Part shown: positions 1,630 through 61,420 of the stretch, piece after piece
Layout: the number at the start of each line of letters is the position of its first letter
Position numbering within the stretch: the stretch's first letter is position 1
Source of the DNA: an uncultured Candidatus Saccharibacteria bacterium
GTDB taxonomy: Bacteria; Patescibacteriota; Minisyncoccia; Phycocordibacterales; UBA918
Assembly (NCBI GenBank): GCA_964552045.1
Contig: CAZKFF010000002.1
Span: forward strand, 3,855 to 67,854
DNA: 64,000 nt
Reading direction: 5' to 3'
The notes under the pieces: model-generated
What the model saw: the letters and a program-made list of their open reading frames with translations, nothing else
What the model was told of the DNA's origin: nothing
The model's database searches: none
Position numbers and translations under genes: made by a program

Positions 1630-4503
1630 ATGTTTACCGAGGTTACAAAGCGAAACGGCACTAAAGTGCCGTTCAATCCCGAGAAGATCATTAGTGCGAT
1701 GCGTAAGGCATTCGTTGCAGAGAACACGCCGGTTGACGACACAGTGCTCCGCCAGATGACCGACCGTGTCGTAGCGAAGCTGCAACTCCTCTTCGAAGGA
1801 AAGACGGAATGTCCGACCGTTGAGATGGTCCAGGATTTCGTGGAAGAGACGCTCATGGAGCGCGGCTATTTCACTGTCGCAAAAGCATACATCCTGTACC
1901 GCTTCAAGCAGACAGAGGTCCGCAAAGACGAGGTCGTGACGCAGATCGAGGAGAATCGGCTCATGATCAAGACAGCACGGGGAGAAGAGCAGTTCTCACG
2001 AGAGGAAATGCGCACGTACATTGAGCAGTTCATCGATGGTGTTGAGAAAGACATCGATGTCGATGGTGTGCTCAACCAGCTTGAACGCGAGGTGTACGAC
2101 GGCATTTCCACAAAAGAGCTTTCAAAGCTCGTCACGCTGGTGCTGCGCGCGAAGATCGAGCTCGATCCAGCGTACTCGCAGGTGGCTGCCCGGCAGCTTT
2201 CAGCGCGCCTCTATGAGGAAGCGATCGCTCCTGATGTGAGGCCCGGCGATGCGGATTTCATACAGAAGTACCGCGATGCATACGCCAAGAACATCACGCT
2301 TGCCGTTGCCGAGAAGAAACTTGCTCCGGGTATGCTCGACTTTGATCTCGCAAAGATCGCTGCAGCTATAGAGCCATCACGCGATGACCTGTTCCGATAC
2401 CTCGGCGTGGAGACGCTCCATGACCGCTATTTCATCCGTGCGGAAGACGGGCGGGTGCTCGAGACGCCGCAGTTCATGTGGATGCGTGTGGCGATGGGCC
2501 TCGCGCTCGAAGAAAAAGAGAAGGAGGCCCGAGCCATCGAGTTTTATGAGGTGATGTCAACGTTACGCTTTGTGCCGTCTACCCCTACACTGTTCCATGC
2601 GGGTACGCCGCATCCGCAGCTTTCGTCGTGTTACCTCAACGTTGTTGAGGACGATCTCAACCATATCTTCAAGGTGTTTGGAGACAACGCGCAGCTTTCG
2701 AAGTGGGCAGGAGGGATCGGTACCGCGTGGAGCAAGCTCCGCGCAACCGGTGCACTGATCAAGACCGCCGGCATCACCTCGCAGGGAACCATTCCGTTTC
2801 TGAAGATCGCAAACGATGTCACGGTCGCCATCAACCGTTCAGGCCGCCGCCGCGGTGCGACCTGTGTGTACATGGAGAATTGGCACTACGATTTTCCGGA
2901 CTTTTTGGAACTCAAAAAGAACACGGGAGATGAACGCCGCCGTGCGCACGATATGAACACCGCTTCCTGGGTCTCTGACCTCTTCATGAAGCGGGTCAAG
3001 GAGGATGGCGACTGGACCTTGTTCTCGCCGGATGAAGCGGTTGACCTTACCGAGACATACGGCAGGGAGTTTGAAGAACTCTACACTAAGTATGAAGCTA
3101 TGGCGGAGCGCGGCGAGATACACCTCTTCAAGAAGATGAAGGCGCGCGAGCTCTGGAAGAAGCACATCAGCATGCTCTTTGAGACAGGCCATCCGTGGAT
3201 CACCTTCAAGGACCCGAGCAACATTCGTTCGCCGCAGGACCATGCGGGCGTGGTGCACAACTCGAACCTCTGCACGGAGATCACGCTCAACACGTCTGCA
3301 ACAGAAACAGCGGTGTGCAACCTCGGTTCGGTGAACTTTGCTGAACACATCACCAACGGTCAGTTTGATACGGAGAAGGTGAAGGCAACCGTAGCGATCG
3401 CTATGCGCATGCTCGACAATGTCATTGATCTCAACTTCTATCCGACCAAGGAAGCGCAGTATTCGAACATGAAGCACCGCCCGGTCGGGCTCGGCGTTAT
3501 GGGATTCCACGATGCGCTCTACGCGCTTGATATCAACTTCGCCTCAGAGGAGTGTGTGACATTCGCCGATACGTCTATGGAAGTGGTGTCATACGCGGCG
3601 ATCCTCTCTTCAACCGAACTCGCACGCGAACGCGGAAGCTATGAGAGCTTCCCGGGAAGCAAGTGGGACCGCGGACTGCTTCCGGTTGACACCATTAAGC
3701 TCCTTGAAGAGAACAGAGGGCTGTCAACCACCATCGACAATACCGAACGGCTCGACTGGGCGCCGGTGCGCGAAGCGATCAAGAAGTACGGCATGCGCAA
3801 CAGCAACTGCATGGCGATCGCTCCAACAGCGACCATCTCGAACATTGCGGGATCAGTGCCGGGCATAGAACCGATCTACAAGAACATCTATGTGAAGTCG
3901 AATATATCCGGAGACTTTATCGTGGTCAATGAGGCCTTGGTGAATGATCTCAAGAAGCGGGGAATGTGGAGCAAGGAGATGCTCGACACCTTGAAGTTCA
4001 ATGACGGGTCCATCCGTCACATTCCGGGCATTCCACAGGAACTTAAGGAGAAGTACCGCGAGACCTTCGAGATCGACATGAAATGGCTTATGAAGGCTTC
4101 GGCGAGCCGCGGCAAGTGGATCGACCAGTCACAATCCGTGAATATCTTCTATGCAGGAACCTCAGGCAAGGAGATCAGCGACCTCTACCTGTACGCATGG
4201 GAACTCGGCGTGAAGACCACCTACTATCTGCGTAGCTTAGGCGCATCGCAGGTGGAGAAGTCCACGATCAACGCCGCAGGTACGCAGCTGCGGAAGAAGC
4301 ATGACGAGGAGGGAACAGGCGAAGCTTCTGAAGCGGCAGCAGGCGCAGAAGCGCCGATCGTCTCGCCGCTTGCGACCCCTTCGCCTATCCAGAAAGAGCA
4401 GATAGATGCAGCGAAGGTTGCGCACGCTGCGCCTACTCCTGCTCAGATGGCGCAGATCAGGCTGCATGTGGCGGAGGACGCGGTGTGCGAGTCCTGCCAG
4501 TAA
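1630..4503 (+). CDS. nrdA: Ribonucleoside-diphosphate reductase alpha subunit (class I) with N-terminal ATP cone
   Basis: 957 aa; ATP-cone N-terminus (VTKRNGTKVPFNPEKI), conserved RNR catalytic core, C-terminal Cys pair (CESCQ). Confidence 0.95.
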   Translation: MFTEVTKRNGTKVPFNPEKIISAMRKAFVAENTPVDDTVLRQMTDRVVAKLQLLFEGKTECPTVEMVQDFVEETLMERGYFTVAKAYILYRFKQTEVRKDEVVTQIEENRLMIKTARGEEQFSREEMRTYIEQFIDGVEKDIDVDGVLNQLEREVYDGISTKELSKLVTLVLRAKIELDPAYSQVAARQLSARLYEEAIAPDVRPGDADFIQKYRDAYAKNITLAVAEKKLAPGMLDFDLAKIAAAIEPSRDDLFRYLGVETLHDRYFIRAEDGRVLETPQFMWMRVAMGLALEEKEKEARAIEFYEVMSTLRFVPSTPTLFHAGTPHPQLSSCYLNVVEDDLNHIFKVFGDNAQLSKWAGGIGTAWSKLRATGALIKTAGITSQGTIPFLKIANDVTVAINRSGRRRGATCVYMENWHYDFPDFLELKKNTGDERRRAHDMNTASWVSDLFMKRVKEDGDWTLFSPDEAVDLTETYGREFEELYTKYEAMAERGEIHLFKKMKARELWKKHISMLFETGHPWITFKDPSNIRSPQDHAGVVHNSNLCTEITLNTSATETAVCNLGSVNFAEHITNGQFDTEKVKATVAIAMRMLDNVIDLNFYPTKEAQYSNMKHRPVGLGVMGFHDALYALDINFASEECVTFADTSMEVVSYAAILSSTELARERGSYESFPGSKWDRGLLPVDTIKLLEENRGLSTTIDNTERLDWAPVREAIKKYGMRNSNCMAIAPTATISNIAGSVPGIEPIYKNIYVKSNISGDFIVVNEALVNDLKKRGMWSKEMLDTLKFNDGSIRHIPGIPQELKEKYRETFEIDMKWLMKASASRGKWIDQSQSVNIFYAGTSGKEISDLYLYAWELGVKTTYYLRSLGASQVEKSTINAAGTQLRKKHDEEGTGEASEAAAGAEAPIVSPLATPSPIQKEQIDAAKVAHAAPTPAQMAQIRLHVAEDAVCESCQ

Positions 4504-4726: not shown

Positions 4727-5728
4727 ATGGAAAAGAAAGGAATCATCAACAACTCATCAACGGACCCCAACAAGATCCTTCCGATGAAATATAAATGGGC
4801 GCGCGAGCACTACAAGGCCGGAGTCGCAAACAACTGGACGCCGGAGGAGATCTCCATGCAGCTCGACATTGAGCTCTGGAAGAAAGAAGGCGGCCTCACC
4901 GAAGATGAGCGACGCATGATCTTGTGGAACCTCGGTTTCTTTTCGACCGCTGAGTCACTGACCGCCAACAACCTCGTGCTTGCGGTATACAACCATGTGA
5001 CCAACCCTGAGTCGCGCCAGTATCTTCTGCGCCAGGCGTACGAGGAAGCAGTCCATACCGACACGTTCATCTACTGCTGCGATTCTTTGGGTCTCGATCC
5101 CGATGAGATCTACAACATGTACGAGACCATTCCGTCGATCAAAGCGAAGGATGAGTTCGTGGTCAACTTCACCAAGTCGGTGTTTGATCCGAATTTCAAG
5201 ACCGACAGTCTTGAGAACATCCAGCGGTTCGTTCACGACCTCATCGGTTTCTACGTCATCATGGAAGGCATTTTCTTTTATGCAGGATTCGCAATGATGC
5301 TCTCACTCAAGCGCCAGAACAAGATGCCGGGGACTTCGGACCAGTTCCAGTACATTCTCCGCGACGAGTCCATTCACCTCGCATTCGGTATCGACCTCAT
5401 CAACACCATCAAGGCTGAGAATCCGGAGGTCTGGACCGAGCCGTTCATTGCTGATATCACTGCGAAGATCAAGCAGGCGGTTGAGCTTGAAAAAGGGTAT
5501 GTTGATGACGCGATGCCGAAAGGCATCCTGGGTCTCAATCCGACAAGCGTGAAAGAGTATGTAGAGTATATTGCGGACCGCCGCTTCGAACGTCTGGGAC
5601 TGCCGGTGCAGTACAACACGCAGACGCCGTTCCCGTGGATGAGCGAAGTGATCGACATGCCGAAGGAGAAGAACTTCTTCGAGACGAAAGTGACCGAATA
5701 CAAAACCGGCGGAAGCCTGGAGTGGTAA
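4727..5728 (+). CDS. nrdB: Ribonucleoside-diphosphate reductase beta subunit
   Basis: 333 aa; ferritin-like di-iron and tyrosyl-radical family features, immediately downstream of nrdA. Confidence 0.95.
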   Translation: MEKKGIINNSSTDPNKILPMKYKWAREHYKAGVANNWTPEEISMQLDIELWKKEGGLTEDERRMILWNLGFFSTAESLTANNLVLAVYNHVTNPESRQYLLRQAYEEAVHTDTFIYCCDSLGLDPDEIYNMYETIPSIKAKDEFVVNFTKSVFDPNFKTDSLENIQRFVHDLIGFYVIMEGIFFYAGFAMMLSLKRQNKMPGTSDQFQYILRDESIHLAFGIDLINTIKAENPEVWTEPFIADITAKIKQAVELEKGYVDDAMPKGILGLNPTSVKEYVEYIADRRFERLGLPVQYNTQTPFPWMSEVIDMPKEKNFFETKVTEYKTGGSLEW

Positions 5729-10430: not shown

Positions 10431-11174
10431 ATGGCCATTACGATGTATGAAGGAAGCGCCTACGCGCTGCCGGTTCCGGATAAATCTGTTGATCTCATTG
10501 TCACTGACCCGCCGTTCTGGGGCGCAGATGGCAATTATTATGGCGGAGATCAGGCGCAGCAGCTTTCTTCAGGCAGGAATACAAGCAGGGAGGAATACTG
10601 GAAGAATCTGACAAAGGCCACCGTTGAGATGAACCGCGTCTTGAAAGACAACGGAAGCCTCATCATCCATATCGGACAGGGTGAGTATCCGCGGCTCAAT
10701 ACGCTTGAGTATGAACACATATTGTTCTGCACCAAAGAACTTGGCTTGTCGCTCACTTCAGAGATCTATTGGGATATCAGCCAGAACATGTACTCGTTTG
10801 AGCATCTGCATGGCGAGTACCAGGTATTTCGGCACTACACCAAAAATAAGGACTATATCCGCAATCAGTTTGAAATAACCAACCTCAATCCCGCAACGTG
10901 GAGGATTCCGTACCTTGAACGCGATCCGCGCCTGCTCAAGATCGGGGCGCTCGGGCACGGGTTCCCAATAGAGCTCGCCTCGCGCATGATCCGCTGCTTC
11001 ACCAAACAAGACAGCGTAATCCTCGATCCGTTTGCCGGGACCGGCACGGTCAATGTCGCTGCAAGCCTGCACGGCCGTGATTCGATCTATCTCGACTATT
11101 CATCGGTCCAGTACGCGCTTGCAAAAGAACGCTTCGGCCACTTCAAATGCGAGGTCACGGAGGGTAAAAAATAG
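10431..11174 (+). CDS. Beta-class (circularly permuted) DNA N4-C/N6-A methyltransferase, apparently an orphan
   Basis: Motif IV DPPF near the N-terminus and motif I FAGTGT near the C-terminus; 3-bp gap after the protease gene; no restriction endonuclease nearby. Confidence 0.75.
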   Translation: MAITMYEGSAYALPVPDKSVDLIVTDPPFWGADGNYYGGDQAQQLSSGRNTSREEYWKNLTKATVEMNRVLKDNGSLIIHIGQGEYPRLNTLEYEHILFCTKELGLSLTSEIYWDISQNMYSFEHLHGEYQVFRHYTKNKDYIRNQFEITNLNPATWRIPYLERDPRLLKIGALGHGFPIELASRMIRCFTKQDSVILDPFAGTGTVNVAASLHGRDSIYLDYSSVQYALAKERFGHFKCEVTEGKK

Positions 11175-13576: not shown

Positions 13577-13721
13577 ATTCTCCAAAAGGTATACAGTTCC
13601 TGTAAGGATAACTGTGAAAAAATAAACTGTCACGAACCTTGCTTGGTATTTTCTGGCAACGAAAATATCGAGGTGTACTGAAACGGTAAATGTTTACGGT
13701 TGAAAGATGATCAGTGCATAC

Positions 13722-13756
13722 AAAAAGCCCGGCGCCTTTGGCGCCGGGCTTTTTGT
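13722..13756 (+). terminator. Intrinsic terminator (aaaaagcccggcgcc tttg gcgccgggcttttt)
   Basis: Perfect 13-bp stem followed by a T-run; an inverse copy occurs at 39178. Confidence 0.8.
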
Positions 13757-13776
13757 ATGCTACGCTTTCTCTCGCT

Positions 13777-14487
13777 ATGGAACTCATTCCCGTTAAAACA
13801 CGAGTGCTTGTGCCGCCGCAGGACGACCTTTTTGCTGTTTTGGACGAATCACTCCCGTCTATACTCGAGGGTGACATTATCTGTATCAGTTCAAAGGTAG
13901 TTGCAATCCATCAGGGACGATGCGTGAGCATGGAAGGCGTCGATAAATTTGAGCTTATGCGGAAAGAGGCGGAGCTTGTGATTGAGCGTGACTACCAGAA
14001 AACGCCGCTTATCGTAAAACAGGCGACGTTCATCGGTTCGGCAGGCATTGATGAAAGCAATGCCAATGGATACTACATTCTCATGCCGGGAGACATGTTC
14101 GCTTTTGCAAAGGAAGTCCGCGAGTATCTACGCAAAAAATATAGGATCAAAAATATCGGCGTTGTCATCACTGACAGCCGATCGCTTCCCATGCGGTATG
14201 GTGCGACAGGAGTTGCCCTTGCATTCTGGGGTTTTAAACCGCTCATTGATCATCGCGGAGAAAAAGATCTGTTTGGAAGAGAAATCCAACTTGAACGCTC
14301 GAATCTTGTTGACGGAATTGCTGCGGGAGCAAATGTGGTTATGGGAGAAGTTGCAGAAGGAACACCTATAGTTATCGCACGTAGCGTACCAGAGGTTACT
14401 TTTACCGAAGCAAGTTCGAAAGAAGAACTATTCACTGGTTTTGAGCACGATATTTTCCGCGTGCTCTATGAACGCTTCCTCATATAA
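13777..14487 (+). CDS. F420-0:gamma-glutamyl ligase (CofE)-like family protein
   Basis: Start at internal ATG 13777 (upstream codons overlap the terminator); CofE-like core features; occupies the position where rplA would normally follow rplK. Confidence 0.6.
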   Translation: MELIPVKTRVLVPPQDDLFAVLDESLPSILEGDIICISSKVVAIHQGRCVSMEGVDKFELMRKEAELVIERDYQKTPLIVKQATFIGSAGIDESNANGYYILMPGDMFAFAKEVREYLRKKYRIKNIGVVITDSRSLPMRYGATGVALAFWGFKPLIDHRGEKDLFGREIQLERSNLVDGIAAGANVVMGEVAEGTPIVIARSVPEVTFTEASSKEELFTGFEHDIFRVLYERFLI

Positions 14488-14981
14488 TCAACCCACTGAT
14501 AGGAGAGACCGTTGTGGTCTCTTTTTTCGTGTTCAGCTGTTGGTGCAAAGTCATCCTCAAAATCAGGGAAGAATGTATCGGCATCTGGCTCGTCGTCGAC
14601 GAGCGTGAGATAGAGTCTGTCAACAAGCGGAAGCGCCTGTTTGTATATTTCATAGCCGCCGCCGATATGTATCTCCTCCTGATCAAGTTCCTGTGCTTTT
14701 TGGAGACCTTCTTCAAGTGAGGAAACCACGACCACACCGTCGTACGTGTACACAGGATTGCGGGTTATGACGATATTCGGCCGTCCCGGCAGTGGCGTAC
14801 CCAGGATCGCCACGATCGACTCAAAGGTCTTGCGCCCCATGACCACCGGGTGGTGGGCGGTGAGTTCCTTGAAACGGCGCATATCGTCAGGAATATGCCA
14901 CAAGAGACCGTTTTCACGGCCAATGGCATGTCTTTTTCTGCTGAGTGCAGCGACGATAACGATGCGGGCTTTGTCTGCCAT
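14466..14981 (-). CDS. folA: Dihydrofolate reductase
   Basis: IVAALSRKRHAIGRENGLLWHIPDDMRRFKELT and VVMGRKTFESI motifs; start at MADKARIVIV. Confidence 0.85.
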   Translation of the reverse strand: MADKARIVIVAALSRKRHAIGRENGLLWHIPDDMRRFKELTAHHPVVMGRKTFESIVAILGTPLPGRPNIVITRNPVYTYDGVVVVSSLEEGLQKAQELDQEEIHIGGGYEIYKQALPLVDRLYLTLVDDEPDADTFFPDFEDDFAPTAEHEKRDHNGLSYQWVDYMRKRS

Positions 14982-15007
14982 ACTGCATTGCAGTATACTA
15001 TATTCCA

Positions 15008-15580
15008 ATGAATCCTGACCTCCTTTCAGACGATCGCTACTTTGAGGATTTCGCTGCGCTTCAGGGGCATCTCTCGCGGCTGAAAGAAGCAGGTAAGAAA
15101 GTCGTGCTCACCCAGGGGGTGTATGACATGCTCCATATCGGTCATGCGCAGTATCTGCAAAAAGCGAAAGCGTTCGGCGATGTGCTGGTGGTCGGCGTTG
15201 ACTCTGACGCGCTCACGCGCAAACGCAAAGGCGAGGGGCGGCCTGTAGTCCCGCAGGAAGAACGCATCAAGATGCTCCTTCATCTGCGCCATGTGGATGT
15301 TGTGGTGCTCCGCGATGTCGATAAGGAACTTGAGGCGCTCATTATGACCATAAAGCCCGATGTCTATATCGCATCTGAATCAACCAAGGACTTCACCGTT
15401 GATGACGCGCTTGCATCGCACTGCGGGGAAGTACACGTGCTGCCACCCCAGGCGACCACCTCGACAACTGCGCGGGTGCGACAGGTAAGCATGCTCGGCG
15501 CAGACCAGCTTGCGCAGGAGCTTGCGCAGCAGATACCGGAGATAGTGCGTACGGCGCTTAACAAGATCAAGTCGAGTTAG
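15008..15580 (+). CDS. Cytidylyl/adenylyltransferase-like nucleotidyltransferase (HxGH family)
   Basis: GVYDMLHIGHAQYL HxGH motif of the Rossmann-like nucleotidyltransferase superfamily (RfaE domain II / TagD-like). Confidence 0.65.
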   Translation: MNPDLLSDDRYFEDFAALQGHLSRLKEAGKKVVLTQGVYDMLHIGHAQYLQKAKAFGDVLVVGVDSDALTRKRKGEGRPVVPQEERIKMLLHLRHVDVVVLRDVDKELEALIMTIKPDVYIASESTKDFTVDDALASHCGEVHVLPPQATTSTTARVRQVSMLGADQLAQELAQQIPEIVRTALNKIKSS

Positions 15581-15582
15581 CT

Positions 15583-16413
15583 ATGCAGGCTATTTTTGCA
15601 TACATTCCCGTGGTACATACAGGCACGCTTTCCTTTTTGCATGCGTATGAGAGGCTGCCACTTGTTCTATTAGACAACGAGGAAGGGAAAAAAGAGAACC
15701 CGTACCTTGAGCGGGATGTCCGTGCGCTTGCTGCAAGCGACATACAGAAAGAGCTGCTCGCCCATGGCTTTGCGGAGGTGACCGTGGCCGCGCCGCGGGA
15801 GCTTCCAGAGAAGCTCGGCGCCTATGATTCCCTTATCGTGCCCTACGATGAGATCGTGGATTTTTTCCTTGAAAAGTATGTGCCGCATATACCTGTACAG
15901 AAGGTCAACTTTTTTTTGCGCTGGACCAAGCAGATATCGGCAACCGAACAGATCATACCGGAAGACCGCGTCATGACGCAGGGCGCATTCGAGAATGACG
16001 TCCTTGCGCGCCTTGAGGAGATAGCAGAACGCAGCCCTGACTGGTGGCGGCAGATCGCCGCGGCCATAGTCAAAGACAACAAGATCGTAGCAACTGCGTA
16101 CAATGCGCACTATCCTTCACCGCACGCTCTTACCATCAACGGCGATCCGCGGTCAAACTTTGACGCAGGGCAGGGAGCGGGCATCTACACATCCATCCAT
16201 GCGGAGGCTTCTGCGCTCGCGCAGGCGGCACGGAAGGGAATTGCTGTTGACGGTGCTGATGTCTACGTGACGACGTTCCCGTGTCCGACCTGCGCGCGAT
16301 CGCTCGTTGAGGCGGGGGTCAAACGCGTCTTCTACAAAAAAGGATATTCGCTTCTGGACGCTGAGGAGATTCTCAAAGGATCTGGTATTGAAATTATTCT
16401 GGTGAAAGATTAG
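15583..16413 (+). CDS. dCMP/cytidine deaminase-family protein with ~130-aa N-terminal extension
   Basis: C-terminal HAEASA ... PCPTCA zinc-binding deaminase motifs; N-terminal region has no recognisable family. Confidence 0.7.
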   Translation: MQAIFAYIPVVHTGTLSFLHAYERLPLVLLDNEEGKKENPYLERDVRALAASDIQKELLAHGFAEVTVAAPRELPEKLGAYDSLIVPYDEIVDFFLEKYVPHIPVQKVNFFLRWTKQISATEQIIPEDRVMTQGAFENDVLARLEEIAERSPDWWRQIAAAIVKDNKIVATAYNAHYPSPHALTINGDPRSNFDAGQGAGIYTSIHAEASALAQAARKGIAVDGADVYVTTFPCPTCARSLVEAGVKRVFYKKGYSLLDAEEILKGSGIEIILVKD

Positions 16414-16826
16414 CCCACGCGGACGATAACCGGCTTGTCTTTCACATTCCCCACAATAAACTGGGCATGGAGGTGTAACACGGTACCTCCTGTTTTTTCC
16501 ATATCGCCTGAGCGCATCAGAAAGGTGCCACTTTCAATCGCATACTCTTTGGTAATCCACGCAATGTGCTCTTGCAGTTCCGCCCACGACTCCGGAGCAA
16601 TGTCTTTGGTGTTTGTGATGTGTTTATTTGTCACGAAGAGAAAATGATGCGTCGTGTTGTCATATGGATACATATTTGGCGTAACGTACCAGTGTTCGCC
16701 GGTTTTTAAAATAGGAGGGGTATGATACTTCTTCATGTGCTCGGGGCAGAACGGACAGAAGCCTTCAGCCTCGATCTTTTTCATATTTTCGATCTGAAGT
16801 GCAGTCCGTGCATTGTCTATATTCAT
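16410..16826 (-). CDS. HIT-superfamily protein, GalT branch (HxHxQ), with CxxC zinc motif
   Basis: VLHLHAQFIV histidine-triad variant and CPFCPEH; start at MNIDNAR after an AGGAA SD (16844 or 16895 also possible). Confidence 0.65.
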   Translation of the reverse strand: MNIDNARTALQIENMKKIEAEGFCPFCPEHMKKYHTPPILKTGEHWYVTPNMYPYDNTTHHFLFVTNKHITNTKDIAPESWAELQEHIAWITKEYAIESGTFLMRSGDMEKTGGTVLHLHAQFIVGNVKDKPVIVRVG

Positions 16827-16854
16827 CAAAGGTTCCTGTGACATATGTAAAAGA

Positions 16855-17754
16855 TTAGACGGGTGTTGGAATAAGCATTTTCGGATGCGGTTCATAATCG
16901 TCGCCGAGTATGAAGTGCTCAGGGCGGAAGTCAGTTATATTCTCTATTGCGTCAGCCTCCGGTGAGAGCATCATGGTAGGGAAACGTCGCGGCTCGCGTT
17001 CCAAGAGTTCGCGCACTTTATCGAACTGACTTTCGTAGATATGGGTGTCCGATGTGGTGTGCACGTATTCGACCATCTCGTAGCCGATGAGTTTGCCGAC
17101 CATCATGCCAAATGCGGCATACTGCACCATATTGAATGCGAGTCCGACCGGAGCGTCCGCGCTCCGCTGGAAGTGATGGATGGCGAGCTCCTTCGTTTCG
17201 GGGTAGCACAGCACGTGTATCCAACCGTGGCAGGGAGCGACGACCACTTTCCGTGTACGTCCTTCGTACTGCACCACGTACTGCGGAATCCACGGCGTAA
17301 TAAGATGTGTGCGCAGGTACGGGCGCTCTTTGATCTGCTTCATGAAATGCTCGATCTGGTTGAAGTCACCCTCATCCTTGGTCGGGAAGTGCGTCCATGC
17401 TGCGCCGTAGGAACCGTCGCCTAAGTCGCCTTCAGGGAGATTGAAGATCGCCGTACGTTCTTTACTGACCCAGCGGTCCCAGAACTTGCAGCCGAACGCT
17501 TCGAGCTGTTCCTGGGTGCGCGCACCGTTGAGAAAGGCAATGTGTTCGCCCAATGCTGCGCGCAGGAATGGTCCTGACATATCGCGCTCAGTGATAAGCG
17601 GAAATCCGTTGCGCATATCAAACCGCATCTGGTGCCCAAGGACCATGCGTGTTGTCTCTCCCTGGATGGGATGTACGTCCCGTCCGGTCTCAAGGATGCG
17701 CCGCAAAAGGTCGCGGTACTGGGTGTCTGGCGTGCGTTCTGTGTATGGCTTCAT
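16855..17754 (-). CDS. thyA: Thymidylate synthase (folate-dependent)
   Basis: Catalytic APCH Cys, QRSAD dUMP-binding motif, Asn specificity residue (GLAFNMVQY), DTHIY. Confidence 0.95.
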   Translation of the reverse strand: MKPYTERTPDTQYRDLLRRILETGRDVHPIQGETTRMVLGHQMRFDMRNGFPLITERDMSGPFLRAALGEHIAFLNGARTQEQLEAFGCKFWDRWVSKERTAIFNLPEGDLGDGSYGAAWTHFPTKDEGDFNQIEHFMKQIKERPYLRTHLITPWIPQYVVQYEGRTRKVVVAPCHGWIHVLCYPETKELAIHHFQRSADAPVGLAFNMVQYAAFGMMVGKLIGYEMVEYVHTTSDTHIYESQFDKVRELLEREPRRFPTMMLSPEADAIENITDFRPEHFILGDDYEPHPKMLIPTPV

Positions 17755-17828
17755 AGGATGCGCTTAGACAAATAATACCTATGATATCGCAGCTTGTTTT
17801 GGTCTCCTAGGCTCTGGGATATTAGACA

Positions 17829-17858
17829 ACAAAAACGGGCGGACCGTAGGTCCGCCCC
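17829..17858 (-). terminator. Intrinsic terminator for the minus-strand HIT gene
   Basis: gggcggacc gtag gtccgccc hairpin with the T-run on the minus strand. Confidence 0.7.
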
Positions 17859-17862
17859 GTGC

Positions 17863-18381
17863 TTATGCCCGTTCTCCTGCATTGTAACGCGCCTCGAATT
17901 CCAAAGCGCGTGCCACGTCCTTTTCACGCTCCTCCTTGCTCTTGAAGACGGGGATGGACAGCGGCCCTGTGCCGCTCGGTACCCAGAGGTTCCAGTGAAG
18001 GTGCAGCATCGTACCGGCATTCAGGCGCATGTCGCCGAACCGGGCGAAGAGCATGCCTCCCGGCAGGTTGAAATGCGCTTCTGCGTACGCGATCATCTCA
18101 GCGAAGGAGGCCCAGGCTTGCGGCGTGACGTCGCTCAGCTTCCGCCAATGCTTTCTCGAGATGATGACAAGCATCACCTCGCACGGACGGGTGTTCTTAA
18201 AGGCGTTCTCGAACATGATCCAGTCCGCGTTCTCGTGGAGGACTGTGTTGATGCTGTGGTCCAAGCCACAGAAGCCGCAGTAGCCATCCTCGAATGTCTT
18301 GCGCAGTTGGCAATAGTACGCGAAGTCGTACGGCAGAGTGGTACAGAACCGCTCTTCCTCGGTCAGCACTTTTTGCGGCAT
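17863..18381 (-). CDS. Second HIT-like protein (HxHxN variant) with CGFCGLDH zinc motif
   Basis: TMLHLHWNLWV triad variant; paralogue of the 16410-16826 protein, on the other side of thyA. Confidence 0.6.
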   Translation of the reverse strand: MPQKVLTEEERFCTTLPYDFAYYCQLRKTFEDGYCGFCGLDHSINTVLHENADWIMFENAFKNTRPCEVMLVIISRKHWRKLSDVTPQAWASFAEMIAYAEAHFNLPGGMLFARFGDMRLNAGTMLHLHWNLWVPSGTGPLSIPVFKSKEEREKDVARALEFEARYNAGERA

Positions 18382-18486
18382 GTTCGTCTCCCGGTATCCG
18401 CTGAATTTCCAGGCGCTACTACACCATATTTACAGAGATATTTCAAGCATTTGCCGGACTGCCCTTGGTGCTACACTGAAAAGGTT

Positions 18487-18909
18487 ATGGAACTTCCCGT
18501 GCAAAAACTCCATCCGGACGCGAAATTGCCTACATTTGCACACAACACTGATGCAGGTATGGACCTGTATTGCATTGAGGAGATCACGCTTTTGCCCGGA
18601 GAACGCGGTCAGGTGAAGACCGGTATTGCCATCAGCGTGCCCGAGGGCTATGTGGGACTGATCTGGGACAAGAGCGGTATTTCGCATGTGCGGGGACTGA
18701 AGACGCTCGGCGGGGTCATTGACCACGGCTACACGGGAGAAGTGTTTGTCGGGATATACAATACAGGAAATGCTCTGCAGACATTTGGGGTCGGCGACAA
18801 GGTCGCTCAGATACTCATTCAGAAATATGAGCATCCAGCGATAGTGGAAGTATCGTCGCTTACCGCCTCAGAGCGCGGAGCGAAGGGTATTGGAAGCACA
18901 GGAAAATAA
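18487..18909 (+). CDS. dut: dUTP diphosphatase
   Basis: 140 aa with conserved dUTPase motifs (AGMDL, GLIWDKSG, IDHGYTGE); upstream part of the long ORF is not coding. Confidence 0.9.
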   Translation: MELPVQKLHPDAKLPTFAHNTDAGMDLYCIEEITLLPGERGQVKTGIAISVPEGYVGLIWDKSGISHVRGLKTLGGVIDHGYTGEVFVGIYNTGNALQTFGVGDKVAQILIQKYEHPAIVEVSSLTASERGAKGIGSTGK

Positions 18910-18910
18910 T

Positions 18911-19585
18911 ATGTCACGGGCAACATTCATCGTATTGGACGGGAAAGACGGTGCAGGGAAGGCGACCCAGACGGCTTTGCTTGTTGCGCGATTGCGCAGT
19001 GAGGGAAGACAGATAGGGACGCTCGACTTTCCGCAGTACACGGTCAATACCTATGGCAAACTCATAAAGGAATGTCTGCAGGGGGAACACGGCGACTTTT
19101 TGGCTGTCGATCCAAGGGTAGCTTCGACTCTCTATGCGGTTGACCGTTTCGAATCCAAAGGACTCTTGCTTGAACTGCTCGCACAGAATGATGTGGTTAT
19201 ACTCGACCGGTATGTGAGCGCGAATATGCTGCATCAAGGTGCCCAGATCGCTGATATGCAGGAACGCCAGGATTTCCTTTTGTGGCTCGAGCATGTCGAG
19301 TACGGTATTTTCGGCATGCCCAAGCCCGACCGCACTATCTCGCTTTCCGTCTCTCCTGAGGACAGCGATGCGATCCTTTTGCGGATGATTGAAGAAGGAA
19401 AAAAGGCAGCGGATGTCGCAGAGTCTGACCGGGAACACCAGAGGCGTGTTGCAGAGTGCCTCCAGTGGCTTGCATCTGTCAAGGAGGATTGGAGTACGGT
19501 ACACTGTAGCAGCGGAATAGACGGGCTCCGGTCGCGTGAAGACATCCATGAAGAGATCTACGGGCTCGTCCAGGAATTACTATAG
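18911..19585 (+). CDS. tmk: Thymidylate kinase
   Basis: P-loop FIVLDGKDGAGKATQ and DRY motif. Confidence 0.9.
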   Translation: MSRATFIVLDGKDGAGKATQTALLVARLRSEGRQIGTLDFPQYTVNTYGKLIKECLQGEHGDFLAVDPRVASTLYAVDRFESKGLLLELLAQNDVVILDRYVSANMLHQGAQIADMQERQDFLLWLEHVEYGIFGMPKPDRTISLSVSPEDSDAILLRMIEEGKKAADVAESDREHQRRVAECLQWLASVKEDWSTVHCSSGIDGLRSREDIHEEIYGLVQELL

Positions 19586-19641
19586 GCTTATGTTGTAATG
19601 CGCTTTACAAAACAGACGTTACTTACTAATGGTTTTTACCC

Positions 19642-20910
19642 ATGAATGAATATCACTACATCAAAGCGCAGGACGAGGAGATCTACACCGCGATAACGGG
19701 GGAGGAACAGCGGGAAATACGCGGACTCGAACTCATCCCGAGCGAGAACTATGTCTCCAAAGCCGTCCGTGAAGCGAACGGCTCGGTCTTGACCAATAAA
19801 TACTCCGAAGGTTACCCGGGCAAGCGCTATTACGGAGGCCAGACTTATACCGACATCGTTGAGACCATTGCCATGGAACGGGCGAAGCAGTTGTTCAACT
19901 GTGAGTATGCGAATGTGCAGCCGTTGTCGGGTGCACCGGCAAACGTCGCGATGTACTTCGCGCTTATGGAACCAGGAGACACGGTTTTGGGGATGGACCT
20001 TTCGCACGGCGGACATCTCACGCACGGACATCCGACCACCGCGATCAATAAGGTATTCAACTTCGTCCGCTACAAGATGAAGAACGTGGATACCGGCGAG
20101 ATCGATTACGATGAGCTTCGGGCAGTGGCGCTTGAACACAAGCCGAAGATCATTCTTGCTGGATTCTCCGCCTACTCACGCGAGCTCGATTATAAGAAGT
20201 TTGTAGCCATCGCCCGGGAAGTGGGCGCGTATGCGGTGGCTGATATGGCGCACATTGCGGGCCTCATCGCAGGCGGAGTTGCACGCAATCCGTTTGATGA
20301 CGGATTCGATGTCATCACCACGACCACGCATAAGACGCTGCGCGGACCTCGAGGCGGCATGATCCTCGTACGTGAAAGCGAGGAGATCGCAAAAAAGATC
20401 AACAAGGCCGTATTCCCGGGGCTGCAGGGAGGGCCGCATATGAATGTGATCGCGGCGAAAGCGGTTGCGTTCGGTGAGGCGCTTGCTCCTGCGTTCAAGG
20501 AATATGCACAGCAAATACTGAAGAATGCGAAAGCAATGGAAGCGGTGTTCAAAATGGAGGGCATTCGCATGCTCGGAGGGGGTACCGACAACCACCTCAT
20601 TCTTGCCGATGTGTACGGCAGCCTGGGCGTCACCGGGCAGGAGGCGGAGACAGTGCTCGACGAGGTGGGCATCACGCTCAATAAGAATATGATCGCGGAC
20701 GAAACACGCAGCGCGCTTGATCCCTCGGGCATCCGCTTCGGTACGCCGGCGATGACCACGCGCGGGATGCATGAAAAAGAGGCGACACTTGTTGCCACAC
20801 TCATGATCGATACGCTCCGCAACAGGGGTGATGTGCAGAAGAAAAATAAGAACAAGGGAGCGGTAGAAGAGCTGTGCAGAGCCTTCCCGGTGCCTGAATC
20901 GTTCATATAG
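19642..20910 (+). CDS. glyA: Serine hydroxymethyltransferase
   Basis: 422 aa; PLP-lysine region TTTTHKTLRGPRGG and SENYVS motif. Confidence 0.95.
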   Translation: MNEYHYIKAQDEEIYTAITGEEQREIRGLELIPSENYVSKAVREANGSVLTNKYSEGYPGKRYYGGQTYTDIVETIAMERAKQLFNCEYANVQPLSGAPANVAMYFALMEPGDTVLGMDLSHGGHLTHGHPTTAINKVFNFVRYKMKNVDTGEIDYDELRAVALEHKPKIILAGFSAYSRELDYKKFVAIAREVGAYAVADMAHIAGLIAGGVARNPFDDGFDVITTTTHKTLRGPRGGMILVRESEEIAKKINKAVFPGLQGGPHMNVIAAKAVAFGEALAPAFKEYAQQILKNAKAMEAVFKMEGIRMLGGGTDNHLILADVYGSLGVTGQEAETVLDEVGITLNKNMIADETRSALDPSGIRFGTPAMTTRGMHEKEATLVATLMIDTLRNRGDVQKKNKNKGAVEELCRAFPVPESFI

Positions 20911-52738: not shown

Positions 52739-52796
52739 CCTGGGCCACACGTCCTCTGGGCGCAGATGCCCACCGGACATCTGGTGAAAAACTGAG

Positions 52797-52867
52797 TCGG
52801 GGTAACCGGAATCGAACCGATGTCTTACCCACCCCATGGGTATATACTGCCCCTATACTATACCCCG
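52797..52867 (-). tRNA. tRNA-Pro (anticodon GGG)
   Basis: Manual fold: acceptor CGGGGTA/TACCCCG, anticodon stem TACCC/GGGTA with loop AUGGGGU, T-arm ATCGG-TTCGATT-CCGGT; D-stem needs G-U pairs. Confidence 0.7.
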
Positions 52868-57142: not shown

Positions 57143-57875
57143 CACATTGTTATGAAATTTGAGTTAAGAAAACTGTAGCGGGACACGAGTTCTTAAAGGA
57201 TTCTTGTGCCGCGAAAAGCGGTTTTTTTAAAAACAAAGTTCAAGGTACGATGCGATTTTTGAAAATTGCATATTCTACTCGGATCGGGTGTAGGATACCC
57301 GGTCCGGTATAAGTCCTGTGTGCTCGACACACACAGGCATGTTCGCGTTCTCGTCGTTACTACGTCACAGCGAGGACAAGAGCAAGCTTGCTTGTTTTTA
57401 GTCCGAGCGAAGACGAAGTAAACACCGCAAGGTGTTTGCTGTTTCGAGAACGCGAACAAAGGTAGTGCGCAGAGTTAAGATTATGTACAAACGGTACAGG
57501 GTCTTTTCGTCCTCTGCGCACATCAAAACACATCGAGTCTTCAAGAGTCGTATTTTCTCTTGAAGACACAACACACTCAAAAAAATTGTACAGCGGTGTG
57601 AGAAAGTCCGGTGGACTTTCGCAAGAGGTTGCCTGTCTGCTGTCACAGCAGCGACAACCTGAACAGCTCCTGTAAGGAGCAGCATTCCTTGCGAATTTCT
57701 CAGAGTCGACTTTCTTAATATCGTTGTGCATGAAAAATTGTACAGCGGTGTACAGCATTCCTTACTGCGGAGTGAGCGAGTGTCGCGCAAAAGTTTACTT
57801 TTGCATGACCGAGCGAACGAACGCAGAAAGGTAACGAGTACGAAATATCGCAATGCGATGTCCAGTATTCCTTAC
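57143..57875 (+). other. Long structured 23S rRNA leader with internal ~150-bp imperfect tandem duplication and 5' arm of the processing stem
   Basis: Nested long-range helices (gttcgcgttctcg/cgagaacgcgaac; 11-bp gtcttcaagag hairpin); direct repeat aaaaattgtacagcggtgt at 57581 and 57733; agtattccttacagg pairs with cctgtaaggaatact at 60865-60879. Confidence 0.5.
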
Positions 57876-60885
<3,010 letters not shown>

Positions 60886-60986
60886 TCGATACAATTTTTC
60901 TTTGCAGTGTGGTGTAGCGATGTGTTTTGATCAAAAGTAGAATATGCACGTTTGGATATTTTGAAGTGGTAGAAGTATTACTTCGT

Positions 60987-61181
60987 CGGAGTATAGCGCA
61001 GCCTGGTAGCGCATCTGTTATGAGTGAAGTCCTCGTTACTCGTCGCCTTCTCCTCTCCGGAGGAAGGAACGAAAATCGAACTCTGATTCGCAGCGATGCC
61101 GCAGGGAGTCTGCACAACAGCTCCTAGGCTTCGGACTTCTGGAGCAGGGGGTCGAAGGTTCAAATCCTTCTACTCCGACCA
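60987..61181 (+). tRNA. tRNA-like gene with encoded CCA interrupted by a ~118-nt intervening sequence (tentatively tRNA-Gln CUG)
   Basis: Perfect 7-bp acceptor CGGAGTA/TACTCCG, canonical D-arm GCGC-AGCCTGGTA-GCGC, T-arm GAAGG-TTCAAAT-CCTTC, CCA; anticodon stem TCTGT(61014-18)/GCAGG(61144-48) forms only if 61019/20-61136/37 is removed, leaving loop UUCUGGA. Confidence 0.45.
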
Positions 61182-61310
61182 CTTCAATAGCTCGTCGTCT
61201 GAGAGAATGCGACGGGCTCGGCATCCCTCTTTTGAACCGCATTGAGAGAGGGATGCCACTACTTCAGAATATCCAAACACGTCGCACACGCATGCGTATT
61301 GAAGGTTTAA

Positions 61311-61420
61311 AGTTGGTGCTTTGGCCAAGAGGGTACACCTGTTCTCATTCCGAACACAGAAGTTAAGCTCTTCCGCACCGATGGTACTCCGCAAGGGGGA
61401 GAGTAGGTTGGCGCCAACTT
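61311..61420 (+). rRNA. rrf: 5S ribosomal RNA
   Basis: CCGAACACAGAAGTTAAGC and GGTACTCCGCAAGGGGGAGAGTAGG conserved blocks; terminal helix gttggtgc/gcgccaac. Confidence 0.85.

Follow-up and report, generated by a model that had tools for sequence, protein, structure and literature searches.

A thyA-linked family of single-domain HIT proteins in the thymidylate gene clusters of Patescibacteria

Two HIT genes in a dTMP-synthesis neighborhood

A 64-kb stretch of contig CAZKFF010000002.1 from an uncultured Candidatus Saccharibacteria bacterium (the window, in which all coordinates are positions unless another locus is named) contains a dense neighborhood for dTMP synthesis, in which the thymidylate synthase (TS) gene thyA stands between two genes for HIT-fold proteins, HIT-1 and HIT-2 (Table 1). 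The genes were identified by an open reading frame (ORF) listing together with Pfam and NCBIfam scans, and their starts were then refined; the scans found every gene that a preliminary description of this DNA had named. The thyA product passes its TIGR03284 cutoff and folA and glyA are adjacent, so the cluster encodes a genuine thymidylate cycle. In addition, the Asn of the FN motif, which marks dUMP specificity in thymidylate synthases, is retained in this protein. The HIT genes had been described as divergently placed around thyA, but HIT-2, thyA and HIT-1 are all co-directional on the minus strand. We placed the start of HIT-1 at Met18 of a longer ORF, giving a product of 144 amino acids (aa) as in protein P0001 and homologs. 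The spacer between the thyA stop and this start is 10 nt, and the two genes are therefore likely to form an operon, whereas HIT-2, which is followed by a strong terminator-like hairpin, is probably on its own transcript. On its other side HIT-2 diverges from dut across a spacer of 105 nt, and HIT-1 converges with the deaminase gene, their stop regions overlapping by 4 nt.

The motifs reported earlier, CPFCPEH and HLHAQ in HIT-1 and CGFCGLDH and HLHWN in HIT-2, are all present in the translations. The two proteins share 27% identity (BLASTP, E = 9e-15) and align with a profile-profile probability of 99.6% in hhalign, which bears out the paralogy that had been proposed for them. In a set of 5.8 billion proteins, HIT-1 has 89 close homologs and HIT-2 has 23. 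Invariant positions in the HIT-1 alignment (A1) are CPFC, H41, H75, R111, G113 and HLH; those in the HIT-2 alignment (A2) form the pattern RFGDM..N.G...H.H.N..VP, with H127, H129 and N131 unchanged in 21/21 relatives. An N-terminal CxxC...H motif had been ascribed to both proteins and does occur in both window translations, but across the HIT-2 family the His of CGFCGLDH is not conserved, and 3 of the 21 relatives in A2 lack even the CxxC.

AlphaFold models of HIT-1 and HIT-2 (predicted local distance difference test, pLDDT, 88 and 83, respectively) each consist of one HIT domain and match many solved HIT proteins with a Foldseek probability of 1.0. The HIT-1 model has an N-terminal helix besides this domain, and that of HIT-2 an added C-terminal helix. 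Curated families (Pfam, NCBIfam) gave no significant match for either protein: HIT-1 from the window scores 15.5 bits against the gathering cutoff of 21.5 for Pfam HIT (PF01230), its sub-threshold matches being CwfJ_C_1, DcpS_C and HIT, and HIT-2 has no Pfam match. PF01230 is nevertheless matched at E <= 0.1 by 17 of 21 HIT-1 relatives (best 2.4e-6), and several fusion proteins described below reach 25-28 bits. A single-sequence search of the PDB returned nothing for HIT-1 and, for HIT-2, a UbiD-like match that we rejected as spurious. The PHROGs yielded a weak match of unknown function for HIT-1 and none for HIT-2, and a viral structure library yielded generic HIT proteins only. In public databases the annotation of family members does not go beyond automatic names, for example "Ap4A HIT family hydrolase" or "ATP adenylyltransferase".

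Table 1. Genes and other features of the 64-kb window
Feature	Position	Strand	Evidence and remarks
nrdA and nrdB, class I ribonucleotide reductase with ATP-cone	nrdA 1630-4503, nrdB 4727-5728	+	Pfam/NCBIfam; upstream context
N6/N4 DNA methyltransferase gene	10431-11174	+	PF01555
CofE-like, putative folate gamma-glutamate ligase	13714-14487	+	PF01996 5.5e-37; TIGR04132 199.5 bits, below cutoff of 350
folA, dihydrofolate reductase	14466-14981	-	Pfam/NCBIfam; N-terminally fused to HIT-1 in other lineages
Cytidylyltransferase-like HxGH nucleotidyltransferase (NTase)	15008-15580	+	Pfam/NCBIfam; operon with deaminase
dCMP-deaminase-family protein, ~140-aa N-terminal extension	15583-16413	+	Pfam/NCBIfam
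N-terminal domain of the deaminase	15583-16005	+	conserved domain
HIT-1, 144-aa single-domain HIT (CPFC, H41, HLHAQ)	16410-16844	-	translation, homologs, model
thyA, thymidylate synthase	16855-17754	-	PF00303 7.8e-62; TIGR03284 163.8 bits, cutoff 108.35
GC-rich terminator-like hairpin and T-run, between HIT-2 stop and thyA start	17837-17857	-	9-bp stem, 8 GC pairs, tail GTTTTTGTTG
HIT-2, 172-aa divergent HIT-1 paralog (HLHWN, RFGDMRLNAGT motif, extra C-terminal helix)	17863-18381	-	sequence, model
dut, dUTPase	18487-18909	+	Pfam/NCBIfam
tmk, dTMP kinase	18911-19585	+	Pfam/NCBIfam
glyA, serine hydroxymethyltransferase	19642-20910	+	Pfam/NCBIfam
tRNA-Pro (GGG)	52796-52867		sole tRNA gene within the 64 kb
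23S and 5S rRNA genes	57872-61419	+	no adjoining 16S gene in the window

Linkage to thyA and fusion to dihydrofolate reductase

The gene neighborhood of HIT-1 is conserved across species. A scan of one genome per species (GTDB representatives) identified 188 relatives, and the best 80 loci were analyzed by tblastn with the window proteins. Nearly all of these come from metagenome-assembled genomes (MAGs) of Patescibacteria, including Paceibacterota, Kaiser-, Nomura-, Nealson-, Adler- and Taylorbacteria and genomes with generic "Saccharibacteria" labels. No locus lacks thyA. It lies directly upstream of HIT-1 on the same strand in 68/80 loci, the order is thyA-folA-HIT-1 in another 8, and thyA is upstream with other spacing in 2 and elsewhere in the locus in 2; thus thyA or thyA-folA directly precedes HIT-1 in 76 of the 80. 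The deaminase and NTase genes are convergent with HIT-1 and directly downstream of it in 77/80, the three loci without this pair being two short contigs and the locus L073. Other members of the neighborhood are folA (68/80), glyA (54/80), dut (37/80), tmk (9/80) and the CofE-like gene (9/80). HIT-1 is a fixed component of a module of thyA, folA, HIT and the NTase/dCMP-deaminase pair, to which glyA and dut are often added. Its family, which hardly extends beyond Patescibacteria (Parcubacteria/Paceibacteria-type MAGs), is previously undescribed: full-text searches of a literature library found no paper that links a HIT protein to thyA, DHFR (dihydrofolate reductase) or dCMP deaminase, or that describes this family or DHFR-HIT fusions, in keeping with the earlier view that a role of such proteins tied to the thymidylate pathway has not been characterized.

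Two loci depart from the common arrangement. In L093 the cluster is rearranged, with NTase, deaminase and HIT on one strand, convergent with thyA-folA. L073 (1-1700) is a high-GC contig binned to Solirubrobacteraceae (Actinomycetota) that carries thyA-folA-HIT, with the motif HLHTH, and no NTase/deaminase pair nearby. It could represent a member of the family outside Patescibacteria, a horizontal transfer or a mis-binned contig.

These data bear on the explanation that HIT-1 is a generic housekeeping phosphoramidase or acyl-adenylate hydrolase of the Hint type and that it lies beside thyA only because the gene order was inherited, not for any functional reason. Hint proteins are indeed its best matches in sequence and fold, and the flanking genes for L11, NusG, ArgRS and a SIMPL-family protein are also partly syntenic in the clade. 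However, the flanking housekeeping genes are less well kept (L11 in 48/80 loci, NusG in 42/80 and ArgRS in 37/80) than the core adjacency (76-80/80), so that general synteny does not suffice to explain how tightly the core is held. Moreover, the linkage survives the rearrangement in L093 and occurs in the non-Patescibacteria-like L073; inertia accounts poorly for recurrent DHFR-HIT fusions; and extra HIT paralogs are retained inside the cluster wherever their position could be seen. We consider this explanation highly improbable. The tie to the thymidylate pathway that had been suggested for the window alone is instead strongly supported by the presence of thyA in 80/80 loci, its persistence through rearrangement and the existence of DHFR-HIT fusions and one HIT-TS fusion.

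Fusion proteins provide a second line of evidence for this tie. Single ORFs that encode DHFR followed by HIT-1, with both domains confirmed by Pfam, are present in L032 (9485-10459), L056 (9497-10447) and L070 (9419-10444; L070/L077). A profile search of 1.84 billion representatives retrieved 1190 HIT-1 relatives, 179 of them at E <= 1e-30, and among the best 150, which we analyzed, 34 are 276-340 aa long and have a C-terminal HIT domain, which in size and domain order is what a DHFR-HIT fusion looks like. All seven long representatives tested with Pfam (7/7) consist of DHFR_1 and HIT. The DHFR-HIT fusion proteins, of about 280-340 aa (P0127, P0131, P0136, P0139, P0150, P0159 and P0224), are widespread in the family. 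A different architecture is found in P0251 (L091, 4284-5102), a tandem HIT protein encoded after thyA-folA in which the second half lacks the HxH motif. The same locus encodes a 568-aa protein (804-2510) with a dCTP-deaminase-like domain and a faint match to ThyX (Thy1).

The preference for DHFR as a fusion partner also raises the possibility that HIT-1 is no metabolic enzyme and instead accompanies TS or DHFR in a regulatory or protective capacity; it might remove an AMP or NMP modification from a protein of the module, detoxify a nucleotide-type inhibitor or serve mainly as a scaffold for DHFR dimerization. One of the fold matches, 8v1y, is a Hint protein bound to AMPylated GlnA, and Hint relatives of the MccH type, in which the third His is replaced, are specialized resistance hydrolases (bioRxiv 10.1101/2020.03.04.977132). 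A pure scaffold, however, is at odds with the full conservation of the nucleophilic His in HIT-1, and a protein that nearly all of the clade possesses is more readily placed in core metabolism than in resistance. The module also lacks a protein-AMPylating writer enzyme; PF01467 enzymes act on small phosphates. On balance we regard a regulatory or protective partner as very unlikely.

About 20 of the 80 clusters contain a second HIT gene. In 13 of these it encodes HxHxN as in HIT-2, and there are a few intermediate extra paralogs with His or Gln at the third triad position. The second gene occurs in two positions: upstream of thyA, which is the arrangement of the window and its close relatives, and in the interval that separates HIT-1 from the deaminase gene. 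HIT-2-type genes are found inside the thymidylate cluster wherever their position could be seen. Among the 80 clusters, each one with an HxHxN-type extra paralog and a called HIT-1 has Gln at the third triad position of HIT-1. HIT-2 is a faster-evolving duplicate, restricted to certain lineages, that is under strong constraint and kept in the module. Since HIT proteins act as dimers, a putative HIT-1/HIT-2 heterodimer is possible.

The NTase and the deaminase are the other constant neighbors of HIT-1. The NTase is better conserved (52-89% identity among its best 120 relatives) than HIT-1 (36-80% among the 80 loci). It is automatically annotated as heptose-1-phosphate adenylyltransferase, and among solved structures it is closest to ethanolamine-phosphate cytidylyltransferase and an HldC-like enzyme. 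The ~140 N-terminal residues of the deaminase constitute a conserved domain with the consensus AYxPVLHxGY ... RDIRA ... MPDEDIS ... FLRWDK, in which H12, G14, P87 and W114 are invariant in 18 sequences. This domain has no Pfam match and, with the 18-sequence profile, no match in the PDB. We considered that it might be a degenerate copy of the neighboring NTase and rejected this idea, as there is no detectable similarity between the two; its HxG motif hints at a degenerate nucleotidyltransferase-like domain that would bind nucleotides.

One way to account for the constant company of these genes is that NTase and HIT-1 are coupled through a single conjugate. In such a scheme the NTase would combine an NTP with a small phosphorylated compound to give NDP-X or dNDP-X, this conjugate may be a substrate of the extended deaminase, and HIT would cleave it to free the NMP, in a carrier-type route to dUMP. 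The presence of the NTase and N-extended deaminase with HIT-1 in 77/80 loci, the single co-directional unit of NTase, deaminase and HIT in L093, the proximity of the NTase to enzymes that make CDP-alcohols or ADP-heptose, and the conserved extra deaminase domain without a detected homolog in Pfam or the PDB are all consistent with it. The fusions speak against it: neither the best 150 HIT representatives nor the best 120 NTase relatives include an NTase-HIT fusion, deaminase-HIT fusions are absent from the former and NTase-deaminase fusions from the latter, and all recorded fusions are to DHFR or TS. Furthermore, the pair is missing beside thyA-folA-HIT in L073, the scheme takes a biochemical detour, and we know of no such nucleotidyl-conjugate intermediate. 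We therefore think this coupling unlikely.

The cluster seems to recruit varied accessory genes of nucleotide metabolism. The CofE-like gene, which was overlooked in the preliminary description, overlaps the convergent folA by 22 nt at their 3' ends, and its product may be a folate polyglutamylase other than FolC. In place of the CofE-like gene, beside folA and adjoining L11, L004 (10549-11019) and L087 (4292-4876) encode either a protein like that of phage T4 gene 30.3 (PF08010) or one that is NUDIX-like. A promoter scan of the region revealed nothing above shuffled background. An Rfam scan of the window found no riboswitch or other RNA element in the region, its only matches being to 23S and 5S rRNA and one tRNA (Table 1). 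The DNA methyltransferase gene lies between a matrixin-like peptidase gene and a gene of the SIMPL family.

Placement among the branches of HIT proteins

The preliminary description had assigned both proteins to the GalT/Ap4A-phosphorylase branch. On this reading they would be transferases or phosphorylases, resembling Ap4A phosphorylase or ADP-sugar or GDP-galactose phosphorylases, that use phosphate or a sugar phosphate instead of water as acceptor and dNDPs or dinucleoside polyphosphates as substrates. In its favor are the HLHAQ of the window HIT-1 and the Gln found in 50 of the 150 representatives, a weak NCBIfam match to an actinobacterial ATP adenylyltransferase (E = 0.0067, 16 bits against a cutoff of 290), weak matches to DUF4931_N in 6/21 members together with some automatic JGI names that read "ATP adenylyltransferase", and the appearance of Rv2613c, an Ap4A phosphorylase, among the lower fold matches. 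The assignment nonetheless fails on architecture, on profile and fold matches, and on the interchange of His and Gln in the triad. The GalT family is defined by HXHXQ together with a core of two HIT subdomains in one chain (Apa2 and GalT2; bioRxiv 10.64898/2026.09.13.751320). HIT-1 (144 aa) and HIT-2 (172 aa) each comprise one HIT domain, find their best matches among Hint-type proteins and have a variable third triad residue, and we reject GalT-branch membership on these grounds.

The top matches in a profile search of the PDB are all Hint-type (4zgl, 5uvm, 3oj7 and 6d6j; E about 1e-4 for 4zgl and 5uvm), and Fhit (E = 0.04-0.11), Rv2613c (0.12) and GalT (0.26-0.29, over a partial stretch) follow at lower ranks. 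Foldseek searches of the PDB likewise place ecHinT, Cth-393 and an E. histolytica HIT protein at the top and also recover HINT1 and the zinc HITs 3r6f and 3o0m; the best fold matches have E = 2e-6 and 5e-5, with TM-scores of only about 0.5-0.6. GalT is missing from the Foldseek top 50 of both HIT models, and among the listed Pfam matches there are no GalT or ATP-adenylyltransferase families, only the weak DUF4931_N. The CxxC...H motif cannot discriminate between the branches, because zinc HITs of the Hint/Fhit type among the fold matches (3r6f, 3o0m and 1kpa) have the same motif. Profile searches thus point to a Hint-like placement, which tells against the GalT reading, and the linkage to thyA is nonetheless conserved. 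The HIT-1 family is a distinct subfamily of Hint/Fhit-like single-domain HITs, and we consider it decidedly unlikely that HIT-1 and HIT-2 act as GalT-type transferases or phosphorylases.

Conservation within the HIT-1 family explains why the triad is a poor guide to its branch. Across the 150 representatives the nucleophile, which is the second triad His, is present in 150/150 and the first triad His in 149/150; R111 and H124 are each found in 149/150, and H75 and the CxxC cysteines C30 and C33 each in 142/150. From these conserved CxxC/His residues we predict a putative structural zinc site in HIT-1. The third triad residue, by contrast, varies: 99 representatives have His, 50 have Gln and one has Ser. 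On a neighbor-joining tree, parsimony gives at least 28 switches at this position with His at the root, a rough count given the short alignment, and HIT orthologs in the same genomic slot carry HLHAQ, HLHAH, HIHAH or HLHFH. With His and Gln split 99/50 and at least 28 switches between them, HxHxQ is not a character of the HIT-1 family; the canonical HxHxH is both the family majority and the inferred root, and HIT-2 has Asn. The Gln of HIT-1 or the Asn of HIT-2 is probably a tolerated variant of a phosphate-contacting residue and not a marker of GalT chemistry. A general caution follows: because His and Gln interchange freely in one orthologous family, HxHxQ alone is insufficient to place a HIT protein in the GalT branch. 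Nor does phosphorolysis need HxHxQ, as Rv2613c is a phosphorylase with HxHxH, and phosphorolytic chemistry would be compatible with the HIT-1 sequence.

A proposed role in thymidylate synthesis and comparison with known systems

How a Hint/Fhit-type enzyme could serve the thymidylate module can be framed from what its neighbors do. We envision that the second triad His would attack the alpha-phosphate of a nucleotide conjugate to form a covalent enzyme-NMP intermediate, from which the NMP would be passed on to water or phosphate. The most likely task of HIT-1 would be the release, beside thymidylate synthase, of a pyrimidine deoxynucleoside monophosphate: dUMP, or dCMP for the neighboring deaminase. 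Three kinds of pyrophosphate-linked precursor come into question: the diphosphates dUDP or dCDP supplied by the class I ribonucleotide reductase, the triphosphates dUTP or dCTP, and whatever the NTase makes. HIT-1 may work in physical association with TS and DHFR. In function it would be a counterpart of the dCTPase/dUTPase in the phage T4 dNTP-synthesizing complex. Class I ribonucleotide reductases deliver dNDPs. Release of dUMP or dCMP is the most economical proposal because the module converts dUMP to dTMP and the class I reductase yields dNDPs. We put this overall picture forward tentatively and judge its chance of being right to be somewhat short of even.

Several considerations weigh against it. 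The membership of HIT-1 in the module is far more secure than its substrate, and substrate and acceptor alike are pure inference. The window and roughly half of the clusters already have dut to turn dUTP into dUMP, and a reversible CMP kinase could supply dCMP from dCDP. The absence of a nearby deaminase and NTase in L073 weakens the version in which HIT-1 supplies dCMP. Fusion to DHFR is far commoner than fusion to TS, which fits a physical complex and does not point to dUMP specifically, and a cofactor-related (NADP) or regulatory role of HIT-1 is possible. The HIT-TS protein P0153 (L090, 87-1481; 464 aa, HIT then Thymidylat_synt) is encoded on a lone 1.9-kb contig and may be an assembly or frameshift artifact. 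Finally, part of the conservation of gene order reflects general synteny in the clade.

A bolder idea, which we hold to be improbable, is that the five genes thyA, folA, HIT, NTase and N-extended deaminase specify an undescribed route to dUMP and dTMP. A pyrimidine nucleotide, borne as a nucleotidyl-conjugate, would be deaminated and then released by HIT straight into a TS-DHFR-HIT complex, with HIT-1 as the missing clade-specific enzyme of thymidylate synthesis in Patescibacteria. The HIT-1/HIT-2 pairs and the tandem protein P0251 would then represent early stages of a duplication like the one from which GalT-type enzymes arose.

The tentative proposal of dUMP or dCMP release can be set against what was known before. 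There is nothing new in the HIT fold or its general chemistry; what is new is the subfamily, with its obligatory thymidylate context and its fusions. Thymidylate synthesis is among the best-mapped of pathways and a classic drug target, and a family that follows thyA and is repeatedly fused to DHFR implies that a catalytic or regulatory step, or else an enzyme complex, has gone unrecognized in a large, poorly understood share of bacterial diversity. We think that the HIT-1 family probably performs an unrecognized step in the making of dTMP. The question is directly testable, since the HIT proteins are small and appear soluble, natural DHFR-HIT fusions exist, and the candidate substrates are on sale.

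The physical coupling of thymidylate-cycle enzymes by fusion is familiar from the bifunctional DHFR-TS of protozoa and plants. Similarly, the dNTP-synthesizing complex of phage T4, which contains the gp56 dCTPase/dUTPase, dCMP deaminase, TS and DHFR, has among its members an enzyme that converts di- and triphosphates to dCMP and dUMP. In both cases the difference is that the extra partner described here is a HIT-fold protein; to our knowledge no HIT partner has been described in either the DHFR-TS or the T4 system.

Among HIT proteins, the GalT branch (GalT, Apa1/Apa2, GDP-L-galactose phosphorylase and ADP-glucose phosphorylase) shares with the window HIT-1 the HxHxQ triad and a zinc-type CxxC...His motif, but its chains are much larger, with two HIT subdomains, and gave no significant profile or fold match. 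Fhit and Ap4A phosphorylases of the Rv2613c type are, like HIT-1, single-domain HITs; they act on pyrophosphate-linked nucleotides, namely dinucleoside polyphosphates, and are among the fold matches (3wo5, 3ano and 2fit). A conserved TxNxxPY in HIT-1 also looks similar to an NxxPY-type strand motif of these proteins. They differ from the family described here in their weak profile scores (E = 0.04-0.12) and their genomic context, and the HITs described here lack a C-terminal extension of the Fhit type. The microcin C resistance hydrolases of the MccH type, Hint relatives with Lys at the third triad position (bioRxiv 10.1101/2020.03.04.977132), are a published example of a Hint-like clade in which another residue stands in for the third His and the substrate is specialized. 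In contrast to HIT-1, they have lost the N-terminal His and reside in antibiotic clusters, not thymidylate clusters.

The closest resemblance is to the Hint branch, represented by E. coli HinT, human HINT1, HP_0404 and Cth-393 of C. thermocellum. These proteins have a single alpha+beta HIT domain of about 110-150 aa, give the best profile and fold matches, use the second triad His as nucleophile and possess a CxFC that aligns with the N-terminal CxFC of the HIT proteins described here. Set against these likenesses are, in the window proteins, a third triad residue that is Gln (HIT-1) or Asn (HIT-2), the conserved helix that precedes the CxxC, and an Arg in place of the Asn that heads the Hint NxG motif. 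The clearest distinction from the Hint branch is that the HIT-1 family is fixed in a thymidylate module and fused to DHFR.

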